This document shows, one piece after another, positions 4,634 to 63,566 of a DNA stretch of 64,000 nucleotides; the stretch's first letter is position 1; every line of letters begins with the position of its first letter. Origin of the DNA: Gammaproteobacteria bacterium (GTDB lineage Bacteria > Pseudomonadota > Gammaproteobacteria > CAJXQU01); assembly GCA_965238175.1 (NCBI GenBank), contig CBDEGZ010000003.1, positions 1,216,001 through 1,280,000 of the forward strand. Reading direction: 5' to 3'. The notes below the pieces were generated by a model. It did no database searches. It saw only the letters and a program-made list of their open reading frames with translations, and was not told the origin of the DNA. A program made the position numbers and the translations under genes.

Positions 4634-4777
4634 ATTTCGGGTTAAATAACGCTACCTACCTTTACTTGTTAGTTTTGTATATTAGTATGTTATCAAGGCA
4701 TCAGGGTCATGGACAGGATGTTCAGCCAAAATGCCACTGATAAAGGATTATCAATATTCATTACATGGAGATACAAC

Positions 4778-5389
4778 ATGAAGTTCACAGCCAAAGGATT
4801 GATATTAATCGTCTCATCGATGGTTACATTTTCTGCACAAGCAACGGTCTACAGTTTTTCCTCGGAGTTTAAAAATCGCGCAATGGAAACTTATTCCACA
4901 TCTTGGAATACGGATAGTGATGTCCTTAGTCTGACTTCCAAATTTAATAATAGTCGCGGAAAAGTAGATAATATTCGATTTACGTTGACCGATGGTGCTG
5001 TGCCAAATAGAGCTAAGCAATACTTCACATACAACTTGGATTTAGTAAACAACAAAGTAAGTGTTAGAGATTATTGGAATGGCGGAAAAGAAATCGCTGC
5101 CTTTGAGAATATTATTGATATTAAACAAGGTGAATTTTCCTTGAACCTTGACCATACTGGCTTTGACAAAAAGTATAACGTCGGTTTCGGAGATAAACTT
5201 GGTATTTGGCATTTTGTTCATAGTAAGGGTAAAAAGATAGACCAAGTAGATCAAAGTAATGTGAGAACCACTAAAGTAGATCTTCCACCGGTATCTCCGA
5301 CTAGTGTATCAGAGCCCAGTACGATGGCATTAATGGGTTTAGGATTGTTAGGATTGATAGCTAGCCGTAGAAAGTTCGCTAAGAAATAA
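4778..5389 (+). CDS. PEP-CTERM sorting-domain surface protein, paralogue A
   Basis: GGAG RBS before ATG 4778; signal peptide ending FSAQA; C-terminal VSEPSTMALMGLGLLGL followed by RRKFAKK. Confidence 0.85.
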   Translation: MKFTAKGLILIVSSMVTFSAQATVYSFSSEFKNRAMETYSTSWNTDSDVLSLTSKFNNSRGKVDNIRFTLTDGAVPNRAKQYFTYNLDLVNNKVSVRDYWNGGKEIAAFENIIDIKQGEFSLNLDHTGFDKKYNVGFGDKLGIWHFVHSKGKKIDQVDQSNVRTTKVDLPPVSPTSVSEPSTMALMGLGLLGLIASRRKFAKK

Positions 5390-5499: not shown

Positions 5500-6105
5500 T
5501 ACCCCCAACTCATGACAAGAAACTGAACTAAAAGCCCGCTCTTTGTTCAGATCAATTGAGACCTAAACAACAGACGAACTGTTTGTATGGTTTCAACTAC
5601 ACCTCACCAACCATCAAGGGAATATTTTAGCCACCAAAATCGCAACTGGTAATGTCGAGGATTGTCAGCCTGATCCTGAACTCTGCGAGAGGACGACCGG
5701 CAAACTTTACAGGGATAAAAGCTACACCAGTAACGCTTTATCCAACAATTTATTTGATGAAGACGTTGAACTGGTCATCCATGTTTGGAAAAACAGGAAA
5801 GCAAAAGTCACTTCACTCTGGGTCGGTAATTGCTCCTGCATTACCAAAACTCCCCCTTCCATGGTAGTCAGACAGAGCTATGCTGAATCGGTGTTTTGTT
5901 ATTGAAAGATCAATGGCCAATTGAAAAAGATGACTCAGACAGAACACTCAAAACACCACTCTGCGCATGGTTTATATTGTTGAATCTTGTCGGTTGATTG
6001 CTTACTGTCTTAAAAATGAAGCCTTTTTTGGAAATTATCGAGTGATGATTTTGAGTGTTTGAAACAGGCGTTAGTGACTGTGGCTTAAAACGCTCTCGAG
6101 TTAAC
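5500..6105 (+). pseudogene. Degraded IS982-family transposase remnant
   Basis: Broken frames give YGF.LHL..NHQG.I...K...GNV.D, KLYRDKSY and QLKKMTQTEHSKHHSAHGF, matching the IS982 pattern GDKGY...QIEHSRHRS..GF. Boundaries approximate. Confidence 0.65.
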
Positions 6106-6354
6106 TAAAATGGACTGAGTATTTTAACCTGAACTTGGGATGAAAACGACAATAAAAACCCTAAAATACAATGAGTTATATGAAAACGCGGTGACTGTTT
6201 TGTCCAGCAGGCTTCTTTTCGTGGCTATTTTAAGGCGGAGTTGCGTAGTAATAGTGGGCTATTGGAAACAACTCCAACGTATAGAGGCGCTAAAAGAAGT
6301 CTGCTGGATGGGTGTTTATTATCCCGAGTTCATATATGGTCTCCTCCCGTATTG

Positions 6355-6555
6355 CAAGATAAAACATTCAGATAACAGGGACAGGATTGCTGTCATATAT
6401 ACGGCCTTCAATGAAGTTTTCAACTTCTGACCTGGATGTATTACGCGCCTATTTTCCTTATCAGGTTATCGGTATTAGTTACCCCTGAGCTCGACAGGTT
6501 TTCAATAGGCTGGTTTGACCTGTTATGCCATCTTTAGTTTTACCTTCGCAATTCG
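6355..6555 (-). ncRNA. Predicted bridge RNA / seekRNA of the IS1111-type element
   Basis: Contains ATAACCTGA (equals left target flank plus core), CGAGcTCA (complement of right target flank), ATATATGA (equals donor junction) and ACATC, within stem-flanked loops. RNA ends are estimated. Confidence 0.75.
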
Positions 6556-6578
6556 TTGAAATGATTTGTTCTCTCTAT

Positions 6579-7592
6579 TTAGGCCGGTGAGTAGTCATCA
6601 CCAGAAACCGTTATAGCCCAGGCCATTCTTGCCATTTTGTTGGCATACGCCACACACGCTCGATTATGCCCCCGCGTCTCAACTAAACGATTAATCCATT
6701 GACTCAGTTTATCGCCTTTCGTTTTGGCTCTTGATACCACGGCCTTCGCGCCTAGAATTAACAAACAACGAAGGTATTTATTGCCGCGTTTACTGATCCC
6801 CAGTAGCACCTCTTTACCACCACTACTGTACTGTCGTGGAACAAGTCCTAATGAGGCGGACACATCGCGCCCTTTGTGATAATGAGCGCCGTTTCCCACT
6901 TCATTAAAATACGCGCTCGAGACCATCGGCCCAAACCCTGGAATAGTTTGTAAGCGTTGGCAAATCGCATTGTTTTTTGCCGATTGAATGATCAATTGGT
7001 CAAATGTCGCAATACAGGCATCAAGTGATTGCCATTGTTCCTTTAGCTGGCGCAGTATCCTTTTGAAAGTAACGGACAACCGTTCGTTCTCATCACTTAA
7101 TAGCAACGGGATAGATTGACGTAGGGTATTTAGGCCGGGACGAAGGCTAATGCCATATTCTGCAACAAGCGCTCTCATTTGGTTACATAATGCGGTTCTT
7201 TGTCTGACCGCTAAGTCTCTTGCTTTATGTTGTGCCTGGTTGTCTTGTTGCTCAACTGATTTAATGCCCACACTTTTTAAATGAGGTTGTTTCGCAGCAA
7301 CGGCGATGGCCAAGGCATCGTTATAATCATTCTTATTGCCGATTAGAAATGCGTTAACATGCTGAGGTGGTAGTAATTTCACCTGATGTCCCTGTTGTTG
7401 TATCGCTCGGGCCCAATACTGTGACGTTGCACAAGATTCTATTGCGACTAAACAAGGAGGTTGAGATTGAAAAAAGGAGAGTACCTGCGCTCGCTTTAAC
7501 ATTTTCTTTTTGATTATACGCCCTTGTTGATTACAGCAGACAGCATGAAATACGTTTTTTGCTATGTCTAACCCGATTGTTGTAGTCTTCAT
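6579..7592 (-). CDS. IS110-family DEDD recombinase/transposase
   Basis: GLDIAK, AIESC, KNDYND catalytic residues; C-terminal GLVPRQYSSGGK serine motif; RBS GAGGAG before ATG 7592. Confidence 0.95.
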   Translation of the reverse strand: MKTTTIGLDIAKNVFHAVCCNQQGRIIKKKMLKRAQVLSFFQSQPPCLVAIESCATSQYWARAIQQQGHQVKLLPPQHVNAFLIGNKNDYNDALAIAVAAKQPHLKSVGIKSVEQQDNQAQHKARDLAVRQRTALCNQMRALVAEYGISLRPGLNTLRQSIPLLLSDENERLSVTFKRILRQLKEQWQSLDACIATFDQLIIQSAKNNAICQRLQTIPGFGPMVSSAYFNEVGNGAHYHKGRDVSASLGLVPRQYSSGGKEVLLGISKRGNKYLRCLLILGAKAVVSRAKTKGDKLSQWINRLVETRGHNRACVAYANKMARMAWAITVSGDDYSPA

Positions 7593-7885
7593 TTTGGTCT
7601 TCTCCTCTTTTGATTGTGTGTATGTCAGTTCAATCATGGCACCTAGATGCCGTTAGGGGGAGGAGACCATCACATCAGGTTATTGTTAGATACATTGTGC
7701 ATAAAACTGTGTCAAAGTGACAGAACAATGTCACAAATTATAAACTAAGAGGTCTTGCTATTTACTTACGTCAATTATTCATTAACTATGGGCACGTATA
7801 TTGGGTTCCTGAACTGGACGTTTGATAAAGAACCACAGATAAAGGATTATCAATTTTTACTATAACAATTATAAGGAGATACAAC

Positions 7886-8509
7886 ATGAAATTCACAGCC
7901 AAAAAATTAGTTCCCGCTATTGTTTTAACCGTAGCATCAACCATCACATTTTCAGCACAAGCGACTATTTATAGTTTCTCAAAAACAGTTACTGGCAAGG
8001 CGATAGAAACTTTTTCGACTTCCTGGAATACTCAAAATAATGTTCTCAAACTATCATCAAGCTTCAATAGTAATAAAGGATATATTGACAGGTACTCCTT
8101 TGTTTTGACAGGTGGTGGTGGCCCTCGCGGAGCAGAGGAATATTTCAACTATAATTTAGATTTGGTGAGCAACCGTGTAACTGTCACTGACTATCGTGAC
8201 CAGACTAACATATTAGCGACATTTGATAATATTATCGATATTAAACAAGGTAGCTTTTCAGTGAGTCTTGATCATACGGGTGCTGGTAACAATTACAATA
8301 TTGGATATGGAGAAGACATTGGTATTTGGAACTTTTTGCATAGTGGTGGTAGGTTGGTAGATCAGCTTGATGTCCATAGTGCAAAAACTACTGCGACACA
8401 ATCACCTACTCCTGGTACTGGCGTATCTGTATCAGAGCCGGGCACATTAGCATTAATGGGCTTAGGATTGTTAGGGATGGTTAGCCGTAGGAAGTTGGCT
8501 AAGAAATAA
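7886..8509 (+). CDS. PEP-CTERM sorting-domain surface protein, paralogue B
   Basis: Signal peptide; VSEPGTLALMGLGLLGMVSRRK; homologous to paralogues A and C. Confidence 0.85.
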   Translation: MKFTAKKLVPAIVLTVASTITFSAQATIYSFSKTVTGKAIETFSTSWNTQNNVLKLSSSFNSNKGYIDRYSFVLTGGGGPRGAEEYFNYNLDLVSNRVTVTDYRDQTNILATFDNIIDIKQGSFSVSLDHTGAGNNYNIGYGEDIGIWNFLHSGGRLVDQLDVHSAKTTATQSPTPGTGVSVSEPGTLALMGLGLLGMVSRRKLAKK

Positions 8510-8566: not shown

Positions 8567-8793
8567 TTCAAGGGATAGAGTTTCAGACTTTACTTAAAAC
8601 GAACTGAGTATTTTAGATACACTGCGCATAGAATTGTGTCAAAGTGACAGAAGAATGTCACAAATTATAAATTAAAAGGCCTTGCTATTTACTTACGTCA
8701 ATTATTCATTATTATAGACACATACATCGGGTTCCTGAACCGGACGTTCAGTTGATAAAGGATTATCAATTTTTACTTATAAGGAGATACAGT

Positions 8794-9459
8794 ATGAAAT
8801 TCACAGCTAAAAAGTTAGTTCCTGCCATTATTTTAACCGTAGCATCGACCATCGCATTTTCAGCACAAGCGGCATTACTTCCTGATCATGATGTTTATAG
8901 TTACTCAACTTCCTTTAACAATCGCGCAACAGAAAGCTTTTCCACGTCTTGGAATACAGCCACTAATGTACTTAGTCTTTCTTCCATGTTTAATAATGAT
9001 TATGGCAAAGTGGATAATATCCGATTTACGTTGACTGATGGCGCCGCGCCAGATCGCGCCAGGCAATACTTCTCATACAATCTGGATTTAGTAAACAACA
9101 AAGTTACTGTTGGAGATCTTTGGAATGGCGGAAAAGAAATTGCGTCTTTTGATAATATTATCGATATTAAAGACGGTAAACTGTCATTAAAACTTGATCA
9201 TTCTAGTTTTGACAAAAAGTATAATGTTGGTTTTGGAAACAATCTTGGTGTCTGGCATTATGTGTACAGTAAAGGTAAACAAATAGATCAATTGGATCTG
9301 AATAATGTTGGAACCAGGGTAGACCGCGTAATAGTAGATCCGCCAGCGGTGATAGAACCACCTGTTACCGGCGTATCTGTATCAGAGCCGGGCACATTAG
9401 CATTAATGGGCTTAGGATTGTTAGGGATGGTTGGCCGTAGGAAGTTAACTAAGAAATAA
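8794..9459 (+). CDS. PEP-CTERM sorting-domain surface protein, paralogue C
   Basis: AAGGAG RBS before ATG 8794; signal peptide; VSEPGTLALMGLGLLGMVGRRK. Confidence 0.85.
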   Translation: MKFTAKKLVPAIILTVASTIAFSAQAALLPDHDVYSYSTSFNNRATESFSTSWNTATNVLSLSSMFNNDYGKVDNIRFTLTDGAAPDRARQYFSYNLDLVNNKVTVGDLWNGGKEIASFDNIIDIKDGKLSLKLDHSSFDKKYNVGFGNNLGVWHYVYSKGKQIDQLDLNNVGTRVDRVIVDPPAVIEPPVTGVSVSEPGTLALMGLGLLGMVGRRKLTKK

Positions 9460-62339: not shown

Positions 62340-62340
62340 A

Positions 62341-63566
62341 TGTAGAAATTCAGATTTGATCTGACAGTTACCCAATTATCAGTAACCGACTGTCAGGTTA
62401 AGTTTAATTCACAAACTTTTCCTTCCAGATAGCTTGTCCGTCGATGAGTGTTTCCATCGGCGTCCTCCCGCAGCACATTTTGCCTTGGTGAGTTCGTTGA
62501 GTATTGTATTTGAGCAACCATTCGTCAAGGTCGAGTTGCAGTTCATCAATCGATTGGTAAATTTTCTTACGCAAAGCGACTTGATAAAACTCATTGAGGA
62601 TCGTCTTATGGAATCGCTCACAAATACCATTCGTCTGAGGTGATTTGACCTTGGTTTTGGTGTGTTCGATATTGTTCAACGCCATATAAAGCTGATAATC
62701 ATGCTGGTCAGCTCGCCCACAATACTCCGTCCCTCTATCTGTCAAAATGCGCAACATAGGCAAACGTTGTTCTTCGTAGAATGGGAGGACGCGGTCATTG
62801 AGCATGTCAGCTGCCGTAATCGGTGTTTTAGTCGGGTACAGTTTCGCGTGAGCGACCTTGCTGTAAGTATCAACAAACGTTTGTTGATAAACCCGACCAA
62901 TGCCTTTGAAAGTACCGACATAGTAAGTATCTTGCGAGCCAAGATAACCAGGGTGTGCCGTCTCTATCTCGCCACAAGCCTCATCGTCGTCTTTCTTGCG
63001 TTCCATCGCCGCGACTTGAGACTCAGTGAGGATCAAGCCTTCACCAGCTACCTTATCAGACAATGCCTTCAGGCGATCTTTAAAGCAAGCAAGACCATGA
63101 CGAAGCCAGATACAACGAACGCCACTGGGTGAGACAAATGTTCCCCGTTTGCGCAGCTCGTTACTGGTGCGCGTTTGACCATGTGCGGGCTCTTCCAGTG
63201 CATACTCGAGCACAACGGTTTCAATAGCCGGGTCGATTCTGTTTTTAAGATTTGGGGTACGCCGATTACGATCAAACAAGGCTTCTACACCGCCTTCATC
63301 AGCCGCTTCTTTGTAGCGATAAAATGTATCTCTGGACAAACCCATCATCTTGCAGGCTTTTGAGACATTGCCGAGTTCTTCAGCGAGATTGAGTAGACCA
63401 ACTTTATGTTTTATAACTTTGTCATTAGTATGAATCATGAGAGTTACCTCTTTGTGTTTTGATGTTTACGTTGCAGTTACATCAAAGCGGGTAACTCTCA
63501 CTAAATCAAGCGTCGCTACGCTCCGCTTGATTTAGTGATGTGTCAGATTGGGTCTAAACTTCTACA
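62341..63566 (-). mobile_element. IS481-family insertion sequence (1226 bp)
   Basis: TGT...ACA ends (TGTAGAAATTCAGATTTGATCTGACA / TGTCAGATTGGGTCTAAACTTCTACA); 7-bp TSD ATTCATA at 62334-62340 and 63567-63573. Confidence 0.92.
62404..63438 (-). CDS. IS481-family transposase
   Basis: N-terminal HTH, GSQDT, LTDRGTEY, PQTNGICERF integrase core. Confidence 0.95.
   Translation of the reverse strand: MIHTNDKVIKHKVGLLNLAEELGNVSKACKMMGLSRDTFYRYKEAADEGGVEALFDRNRRTPNLKNRIDPAIETVVLEYALEEPAHGQTRTSNELRKRGTFVSPSGVRCIWLRHGLACFKDRLKALSDKVAGEGLILTESQVAAMERKKDDDEACGEIETAHPGYLGSQDTYYVGTFKGIGRVYQQTFVDTYSKVAHAKLYPTKTPITAADMLNDRVLPFYEEQRLPMLRILTDRGTEYCGRADQHDYQLYMALNNIEHTKTKVKSPQTNGICERFHKTILNEFYQVALRKKIYQSIDELQLDLDEWLLKYNTQRTHQGKMCCGRTPMETLIDGQAIWKEKFVN

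Follow-up and report, generated by a model that had tools for sequence, protein, structure and literature searches.

Features of the locus

The stretch of DNA analysed here, in the following called the window, comprises 64,000 nucleotides (positions 1,216,001 to 1,280,000 of the forward strand of contig CBDEGZ010000003.1, assembly GCA_965238175.1) of a Gammaproteobacteria bacterium. The genome amounts to 3.35 Mb in three contigs, with a chromosome of 40.4% G+C. On the minus strand of the window, from 7677 to 6333, lies a complete insertion sequence (IS) of 1345 bp, counted with the left copy of its TG core, that carries a transposase gene followed by a long non-coding region. It interrupts a repeat resembling a miniature inverted-repeat transposable element (MITE). 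We read it as an active or very recently active member of the IS1111 family that would be guided by its own 3' RNA into TAACC-TG-A(G/A)CTCG, and we give this reading, made from sequence comparison, a probability of about nine in ten. The support obtained for it consists of family features, of an RNA structure recognised by covariation, of covariation between guides and flanks and of the spectrum of insertion sites.

On the minus strand from 7683, the left junction reads ATAACC-TGATGTG-ATGGTCTCCTCCC, that is ATAACC-TGA-TGTGATGG. The right junction reads GGGAGGAGACCAT-ATA-TGA-ACTCGGGAT, that is CCATATA-TGA-ACTCGGGAT, with the TGA ending at 6330. Both junctions had been drawn in the same way in an earlier reading of this DNA made from the letters alone (the sequence-only reading in the following). 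The left end begins with a terminal extension of 7 bp, TGATGTG (7671-7677, minus), whose first two bases are the core, and continues with the subterminal inverted repeat ATGGTCTCCTCCC of 13 bp (7658-7670, minus). The latter is the perfect reverse complement of 6348-6336, the right subterminal repeat GGGAGGAGACCAT (6336-6348, minus), after which the 3-bp right extension ATA (6335-6333) follows.

The transposase gene (6579-7592, minus; P0001) starts with an ATG at 7592 after AGGAG. An open reading frame (ORF) of 352 aa listed at 6579-7637 begins upstream of this ribosome-binding site, and the protein is counted here as 337 aa from the ATG at 7592. Pfam finds PF01548 (DEDD_Tnp_IS110; E 3.6e-16, profile positions 1-153 of 155) and PF02371 (Transposase_20; E 6.4e-20) in the ORF, and the protein reaches 302.9 bits with the NCBIfam model NF033542 ('IS110 family RNA-guided transposase'), whose cut-off is 140. 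Among 57 aligned proteins (the transposase and 56 homologues), D9, E52, D89 and D92 are conserved in at least 97%, and the same holds for G249, P252 and G258 of the C-terminal motif G249-L-V-P252-R-Q-Y-S-S257-G258 (GLVPRQYSSG). Against solved structures, the C-terminal domain alone aligns by sequence, namely to the transposases of IS621 (E 2.3e-4) and ISCro4 (about 2e-4). From these profiles and residues, we class the transposase among the DEDD/RuvC-like recombinases, with a Ser-Gly motif in its C-terminal part.

The IS1111 family is described as having a left extension of 7 bp and a right one of 3 bp, outside subterminal repeats of 11-13 bp, and as further marked by a downstream non-coding region, a transposase of 330-350 aa and the motif GL-P----S(T)G (PMC11187229). 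In the case of the window element, the 13-bp repeat, which is perfect, and its extensions TGATGTG (left) and ATA (right) fit the first mark. The second is seen in the non-coding DNA, which runs for 246 nt from the stop codon (6579-6581) to the right end (6333) versus 85 nt before the ATG. The protein length of 337 aa falls into the range of the family, and GLVPRQYSSG is an instance of its motif. Moreover, all 24 complete copies in the genome show one target in one orientation without target duplication beyond the shared core, in the form (T/A)AACC-TG-[IS]-TG-A. Every IS1111-defining feature that is readable from the sequence is present in the window element.

A conserved RNA downstream of the transposase gene

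Homologues were sought in species-representative genomes. Transposases 49-78% identical were found at 80 loci, in Halioglobus, Colwellia, Shewanella, Paraglaciecola, Pseudoalteromonas and many uncultured Gammaproteobacteria and Desulfuromonadales. For 61 elements (60 loci and the window's own copy) it was possible to anchor the same ends, and the last 205 nt of 58 distinct elements align well (alignment A1). RNAalifold and a structure of 36 pairs drawn by hand concur on the helices of this region. These are an outer helix, the target-module stem, a 3-bp inner stem, a small hairpin and a donor module that is closed by GGCC with GGCC around a second hairpin. Pairing is found in 96.1% of the 2033 cells of the 36-pair structure, versus 31-38% when the partners are slid by 1-3 columns. 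Compensatory changes on both sides occur in 22 of the 36 pairs, and none of 500 shuffles reaches any of the five measures calculated.

The closing stem of the target module, which the sequence-only reading had already pointed out, is formed by GCCTATT (6504-6510, minus) and AATAGGC (6447-6453, minus). All 8 pairs of this stem in the family (A1 columns 68-75 with 130-137) have changed on both sides. The same reading had suggested a comparison with covariance models and a folding of the region. For the former, a model (R1) was built from 56 relatives, excluding the window sequence and one defective relative (L065). R1 matches the window from 6532 to 6371 over its full length (positions 1-167 of 167) with 142.4 bits (E 8e-38). 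Folding of the single sequence gave a more mixed result (z = -2.8), as the target-module stem was recovered, but not every helix of the family consensus; for this reason the alignment-based structure is preferred. Judged by this comparative evidence, a guide RNA of about 160 nt, in other words a bridge or seekRNA with a target and a donor module, would be read from the non-coding region 3' of the transposase gene (6371-6532, minus).

A permissive scan of positions 5800-8200 with Rfam 15 gave no model that matches the RNA region and no bridge or seekRNA family. The three matches obtained at E up to 10, mir-1788, FTX_4 and Afu_300 (E 0.11 to 7), all lie outside the element and were rejected as spurious. 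When the whole genome was searched with R1, no copy of the RNA was found beyond the 25 IS copies. Outside this genome, 54 enterobacterial plasmid records (L111 and 53 others) hold an unnamed 'IS110 family transposase' element, and the RNA scaffold is about 71% identical to its non-coding region. Within the plasmid collection no record covers 80% of the window element, the matches being the RNA scaffold or a short piece of the gene. In the case of L111 (Klebsiella plasmid NZ_CP043927.1, 187420-190820), the left guide GTAAG-CG fits the left flank, and an automatic search for its subterminal repeat found none. As a side observation, in L065, which comes from a metagenome-assembled genome of the Desulfuromonadales, the 5' side of the donor module and its hairpin are gone (a gap of about 50 A1 columns) and the target module is kept. 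L065 is probably a defective copy because of this missing part.

Target guides follow the flanks of each element

Two stretches of the RNA correspond to the DNA on either side of the insertion. The right target guide, CGAGCTCA (6486-6493, minus), is the reverse complement of TG followed by AGCTCG. The left target guide, TAACCTG (6462-6468, minus), copies the 5 nt of the left flank, TAACC (7678-7682, minus), together with the TG core; in the interrupted MITE, this flank makes up the outermost 5 bp. Strands were assigned to the guides as by Durrant et al. (PMC11208160). In this RNA the top-strand match stands 5' of the bottom-strand match, which is the order of IS1111-type seekRNAs and the reverse of that of the IS110 type (PMC11187229).

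When flanks were compared with the non-coding region of their own element, the best matches clustered family-wide at two fixed distances from the right end. Covariation was then counted with every distinct guide pair represented once, by an element with full flanks, so that 51 of the 58 aligned elements remained. The left flank from -5 to -1 equals the 3' guide in 228 of 255 cells (permuted mean 80, sd 8), and the right flank from +1 to +6 equals the reverse complement of the 5' guide in 242 of 306 cells (permuted 101, sd 8); in neither case did any of 2000 permutations reach the observed value. The flank positions -6, -7, +7 and +8 match the guides at chance level. The same 51 elements hold 38 distinct left 5-mers and 41 distinct right 6-mers. 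Altogether, the covariation at these two positions indicates a programmable target of 5 nt, a 2-nt core and 6 nt. The motifs of the window element occupy precisely the two positions that covary with the flanks in its homologues, and their matches thus exceed what chance would give.

Related elements illustrate how the target changes along with the guides. L031, with a transposase 77% identical, carries the guides ACGATC-TG and ATAACC-TCA and is inserted at GATC-TG-AGGTTA. A relative from the same genus (G003) has the guide CGAATTCA and the flank TGAATTCGG, and its right side reads TGAATTCGGGATAAG.

These data bear on the question of whether an RNA has to be invoked at all. The protein alone could recognise the terminal repeat of the MITE, and the matches between RNA and flanks would then be a coincidence or the footprint of past recombination. 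This explanation draws on the window element itself, where the matches on the donor side are short (6-7 nt) and the right target guide has one mismatch. Against this, guides at fixed positions follow 38 left and 41 right flank sequences over the 51 elements, and transposases 77% identical use other sites, each of which matches its own guides. In addition, published experiments found the RNA to be required and reprogrammable in this family (PMC11187229). We therefore regard recognition by protein alone as very improbable.

The sequence-only reading had named four guide motifs, all of which stand where it placed them on the minus strand: CGAGCTCA at 6493-6486, ATAACCTGA at 6469-6461, TACATC at 6440-6435 and ATATATGA at 6400-6393. 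Its view of an IS1111-type recombinase with readable target and donor loops is borne out by the guide-flank covariation, by the compensatory changes in the stems and by the 24 genomic sites, and the covariation of guide and target among homologues, which it had proposed to look for, was found in the 51 elements. Its left match of 9 nt has to be shortened. Only TAACC and TG covary with the flank; the A's that border them agree no better than by chance, and position -6 is not constant in the 24 copies.

Donor guides and the core

The donor module contains a second pair of guides. UACAUC, the right donor guide (6435-6440, minus), pairs with GATGTG of the left end with one U-G wobble, and ATATATG, the left donor guide (6394-6400, minus), copies the right end ATATA together with the TG core. 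In A1 the latter segment, ATATA-YG, is nearly invariant. As the ends are conserved in the family, there is less variation on which to test donor guides. Still, at position 6 of the left extension, where T, A, C and G all occur, 52 of 54 elements agree with their 5' donor guide, and positions 6 and 7 together match this guide in 72 of 108 cells compared to 50 ± 3 in permutations, none of 5000 of which reached this value. At its Y, the left donor guide departs from the core base of the right junction in only about 3 of 54 elements. Opposite the first core base, the right donor guide has a letter whose fit is poor across the family, with an exact agreement of 0.52, or 0.85 if wobble is allowed.

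In the window element TGA is common to both junctions, and the sequence-only reading had taken TGA as the core. In the family the shared letters are a Y followed by a G. The base at +1 of the right flank may be G, A, C or T, while position 3 of the left extension is A in 54 of 54 elements. A 3-nt core TGA was rejected, as +1 of the right flank is not A in most homologues, and the third letter is explained as a coincidence of the target with the constant left end. The core is therefore a dinucleotide, as in IS621.

A further pattern concerns the first core base. In 11 of the 54 elements it is T at the left junction and C at the right junction, in the left target guide and in the left donor guide; the right target guide has C in 10 of these 11, and the reverse pattern occurs in none of the 54. 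Loci with this T/C asymmetry are L056, L058, L059, L077, L083, L086, L088, L090, L093, L094, L100 and L108. Since the 11 elements fall into perhaps three lineages, we treat the asymmetry as a lead and not as a result. It may bear on the position of the strand cut in IS1111-type recombination. The crossover region may be the single G, or a heteroduplex at the core may be resolved with a fixed bias. That this IS1111 subfamily exchanges strands differently from IS621 is a tentative idea, which we consider rather unlikely.

Copies of the element and their insertion sites

The genome holds 25 copies of the element, 24 of them complete with both flanks and one cut by a contig end. All complete copies measure 1345 bp; 22 of the 24 are identical over this length and the other two differ by one base each. 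In contigs of the likely source sample (X2), the IS appears as a collapsed repeat with a depth of 139 versus 6-8 in its flanks, as expected for about 20 or more copies. Of the six other species of the genus that were searched, five gave no match to the element and the sixth (G003) has a related right end. In the same six species, a search for an empty orthologous site with 7678-8300 as query gave none, the matches being to paralogous genes at 65-83% identity.

On the left side the sites are nearly uniform. The flank is TAACC in 23 copies and AAACC in one, followed by TG and then A in all 24, and the base at -6 is any of the four. All 24 sites can be written as (T/A)AACC-TG-A. The right side is more variable, with 5 of 6 matches to AGCTCG at 10 sites, 4 at 7 sites, 3 at 5 sites, and 2 and 1 at one site each. 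At least 4 of 6 matches to the right guide are found at 17 of the 24 occupied sites, as compared to 17 of 467 unoccupied TAACC-TG sites. Hence half of the good sites are occupied (17 of 34), versus 7 of 457 poor ones. That the element spread to 24 sites, none of them a perfect fit to its right guide, hints at a natural design in which the left half-site is strict and the right one loose.

Regarding the kinds of sequence that are entered, 14 insertions lie in terminal repeats of the MITE type and 2 in a second repeat family (TAACC-TG-AGATCGGTTTAAGCC). Three stand directly beside one end of another IS of 1226 bp, which is present in about 61 copies, and one lies inside this IS. The remaining 4 share little beyond TAACC-TG-A. 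The terminal inverted repeat of the MITE, proposed in the sequence-only reading as the natural target, is thus the main case with 14 of 24 sites, 6 of these insertions being in complete MITEs, but the other 10 of 24 are look-alike sites. These are explained by the tolerance of the right half-site for mismatches.

Several observations do not fit the proposed guidance easily and have to be weighed against it. None of the 24 occupied sites is perfect to the 13-nt guide prediction, the number of mismatches being 1 to 5. The sole perfect site in the genome (C3:393943, C3 being the contig of the window) has no insertion; 9 bp away from it is the right end of an IS copy, which occupies an overlapping inverted half-site. 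At +2 the predicted G is A at 18 sites and T at one, thus at 19 of 24. This corresponds to a C-A mismatch (C-U at the T site) that a U in the guide would avoid, and a Shewanella relative (L033) has T at this position. Two insertions match the right guide at 1 or 2 of 6 positions, and because of them the right guide is insufficient to explain every event. The donor guide of the window element has a C opposite the first core base, mismatching T, and in L111 the right guide could not be fitted to the right flank. Finally, contigs from public runs that were placed on 5900-8100 contained neither a circle-junction joint nor an empty-site joint. Here the sets X1 and X2 were used as well as X4, which gave no match, and X5, which gave pieces of a distant relative only. 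The public runs listed as containing this DNA were three in number, from a single sample and study, with no RNA run among them.

Some of these points are what an inactive relic would leave behind, that is an element whose guides record ancestral insertion sites and whose present copies are immobile. In this sense one can read the missing circle joint, the C of the right guide that mismatches the commonest target base at +2 and the one perfect site that stays empty. The copies themselves tell against immobility. They are nearly all identical, no damage is seen in the ORF, the catalytic residues, either end or the full RNA model, and the element was not found in five of the six congeneric species searched. 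Taken together this points to a recent burst, and a recent burst of the window element is indeed what the genome looks like. An inactive relic is in our opinion improbable, and we keep to an element that is, or was until very recently, active and guided by its RNA.

The boundaries of the element were questioned in a similar manner. As (T/A)AACCTGA stands on the left of all 24 copies, TAACCTGA could be part of the element, whose ends would then be misdrawn and whose target would lie on the right side only; it has been noted that one-sided logos often stem from wrong ends (PMC11187229). However, TAACCTGAAC(T/C) is found uninterrupted at MITE ends that carry no insertion, among them the opposite end of the MITE in the window. 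Furthermore, the left flanks of homologues that share the conserved ends are unrelated, each recurring in the left guide of its own element, and the rule of the 7-bp extension sets the end at TGATGTG (PMC11187229). We give such a shift of the ends hardly any credit and retain the boundaries 6333 and 7677.

The target MITE and other repeats

The remainder of the interrupted MITE-like element occupies 6125-6332 (minus). It starts with TGAACTCGGGAT, ends in the inverted terminal repeat ATCCCAAGTTCAGGTTA and measures 213 bp when rejoined; its opposite end reads TAACCTGAACTTGGGAT (6125-6141). The point of entry of the IS lies 5 bp inside the terminal repeat. The uninterrupted target TAACCTGAACTCGGGAT occurs in the genome twice exactly and 29 times with up to 3 mismatches. 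The MITE family was searched after the IS copies had been taken out of the sequence, using a terminal repeat of about 20 bp (TAACCTGAACTCGGGATAAG) with up to 5 mismatches. This gave 67 terminal-repeat 20-mers overall and 8 convergent pairs at a spacing of 211-239 bp. A matching 2-bp flank is present in 5 of the 7 pairs with both ends intact, and BLAST gives 9 long copies at 82-87% identity. The repeat is thus a short non-coding element with terminal inverted repeats, several copies and a matching 2-bp flank, as expected of a MITE. The sequence-only reading had spoken of a multi-copy safe harbour. The MITE is multi-copy, but the family is small and, with just 8 complete pairs, makes a modest harbour.

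The 6 insertions in complete MITEs include the copy of the window, which sits at the end opposite to most others; another 3 of the 14 terminal-repeat insertions are in a MITE also interrupted by another IS. At C3:1050196-1054153, two IS1111-type copies in opposite orientation fill both terminal repeats of one MITE, which is also broken by the 1226-bp IS, so that the whole resembles a composite transposon-like nest. The 1226-bp IS, with the ends TGTAGAAGTTTAGACCC and TGTAGAAATTCAGATTTGATC, is also found in the window at 62340-63566 (C3:1278340-1279566) and has about 61 places in the genome (61 matches per end). One copy of it holds an IS1111-type element inside, at CTTAACC-TG-ACAGTCGG.

The second repeat family starts with GATCGGTTTAAGCCACGG and was found at C3:118145, 1172076, 556587, 527593, 1091245, 49113 and 1701462. 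Its two TAACC-TG members carry the IS, and of the 5 empty members 4 have TC in the core position. This family is shared between genera, as the same sequence is the target of a Colwellia relative (L032).

Partial ends of the IS occur as well. A stretch of 77 bp at C3:1393269-1393345 contains a near-perfect palindrome of 67 bp in which two left ends stand head to head, bordered by TAACC on one side and GGTTA on the other. Older solo left-end fragments are located at C3:1154711 (91%), C3:2897426 (84%) and C3:2357906 (79% over about 400 bp), preceded by TAACC, TAATC and TAACC, respectively.

Proposed mechanism

The mechanism proposed here is modelled on ISEc11, ISPa11 and ISKpn4 (PMC11187229) and on IS621 (PMC11208160), and it is from these elements that we infer the processing of the RNA, the circular intermediate and the chemistry. 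The element would excise as a circle with abutted ends. The joined ends would form the promoter TTGCAA-17 nt-TATGAT, and the transcript would yield the transposase and the 3' RNA. The target module with the stem GCCUAUU/AAUAGGC would bind TAACC-TG-A(G/A)CTCG, and the donor module would offer UACAUC and AUAUAUG to the joined ends of the excised circle. Strand exchange would take place at the TG core, with insertion always in one orientation, the left half-site being obeyed strictly and the right half-site tolerating mismatches.

The promoter of this scheme is suggested by TTGCAA (6352-6357, minus), the likely -35 element of a promoter that end joining would complete. In the 58 sequences its T, T, G and C are invariant and both A's are conserved in at least 90%. 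Joining of the ends would put TTGCAA 17 nt, as judged by eye, before TATGAT, which would span the junction. A promoter scan of the integrated copy found no sigma-70-like site on the minus (coding) strand, and 3 sites versus 2.6 expected overall. A promoter formed at the circle junction would presumably drive transcription.

Comparison with known systems

The closest likeness is with ISEc11, ISPa11, ISKpn4 and ISPst6, for which a transposase of the same DEDD type and size range (330-350 aa), repeats of 11-13 bp, ends extended by 7 and 3 bp and a long non-coding region on the 3' side are described (PMC11187229). The seekRNAs of the ISEc11 type also have the top-strand match 5' of the bottom-strand match, both overlapping at the insertion point, and close relatives of these elements are naturally retargeted, the target of ISPa11 being a repeated element (REP) (PMC11187229). 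The window element differs from the ISEc11 group in its target TAACC-TG-AGCTCG, and the likeness is one of published features. In the case of IS621 (PMC11208160; structures 8WT6 and others), the RNA has two loops with left and right guides on opposite strands, each with a 2-nt core, as here. IS621 differs in having its RNA on the 5' side of the gene, in starting each loop with the bottom-strand guide, and in its CT core and its subterminal repeats of 2-3 bp. In the same source a bridge RNA is predicted in the right end of 93.0% of IS1111-group elements (PMC11208160).

Insertion of IS1111-type elements into small repeats has precedents. In Coxiella burnetii RSA 493, 20 of 21 IS1111 copies are in QMITE2 elements, mostly short or diverged, with one clearly full-length (PMC5896051). 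This picture resembles that of the window element with its 6 of 24 copies in complete MITEs. It differs in that a GTAG REP inside QMITE2 is targeted and not the outermost terminal repeat; the paper predates the explanation by RNA guides (PMC5896051). ISPpu9 of Pseudomonas putida is inserted in repeated extragenic palindromes and has a small-RNA gene (Ssr9) downstream of its transposase (PMC12288879). It also has extra stand-alone RNA genes (PMC12288879), and such orphan genes were rejected for the present genome, given that R1 matches are confined to the 25 IS copies.

Outside the small repeats, the host may be a larger mobile element, in contrast to the MITE found here. IS4321 and IS5075, which belong to the IS1111 family, reportedly enter the terminal inverted repeats of another mobile element, in their case a large Tn3-family transposon.

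The RNA-guided mechanism (2024), the 3' location of the RNA, natural retargeting and the targeting of MITEs, REPs and transposon ends are thus already published. The element and its MITE were not seen described in the literature covered on IS1111 and MITEs, a scope that ends before ISfinder and the supplements of PMC11208160 and PMC11187229, which may list a near relative. What the present data offer is a clean natural data set for a less-studied IS1111 branch, with 25 near-identical copies and 24 readable sites including off-targets. Besides, 51 elements with distinct guides fix the programmable positions at 5 + 2 + 6 nt, and a close relative is retargeted. These data could help to engineer IS1111-type recombinases or to predict insertion sites from sequence alone.

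Other features of the window and the genome

Inside the MITE, at 6200-6311 of the window (plus), there is a long hairpin, CCAGCAGGCTTCTTTT...AAAAGAAGTCTGCTGG, and this hairpin is the reason for the Rfam match to mir-1788 (22 bits, the gathering score being 57). Three small secreted proteins, paralogues of each other, are encoded on the plus strand at 4709-5389, 7886-8509 and 8752-9459. They end in SEP(G/S)T(L/M)ALMGLGLLG...RRK, which we take to be similar to a PEP-CTERM sorting signal. The MITE and the IS are located between two of these three genes, and further paralogues are present at C3:2842696 and C3:2914130. Beyond the chromosome, the two small contigs measure 10,967 bp at 55.8% G+C (C1) and 8,481 bp at 43.9% G+C (C2); C1 may be a plasmid, a foreign element or a contamination.

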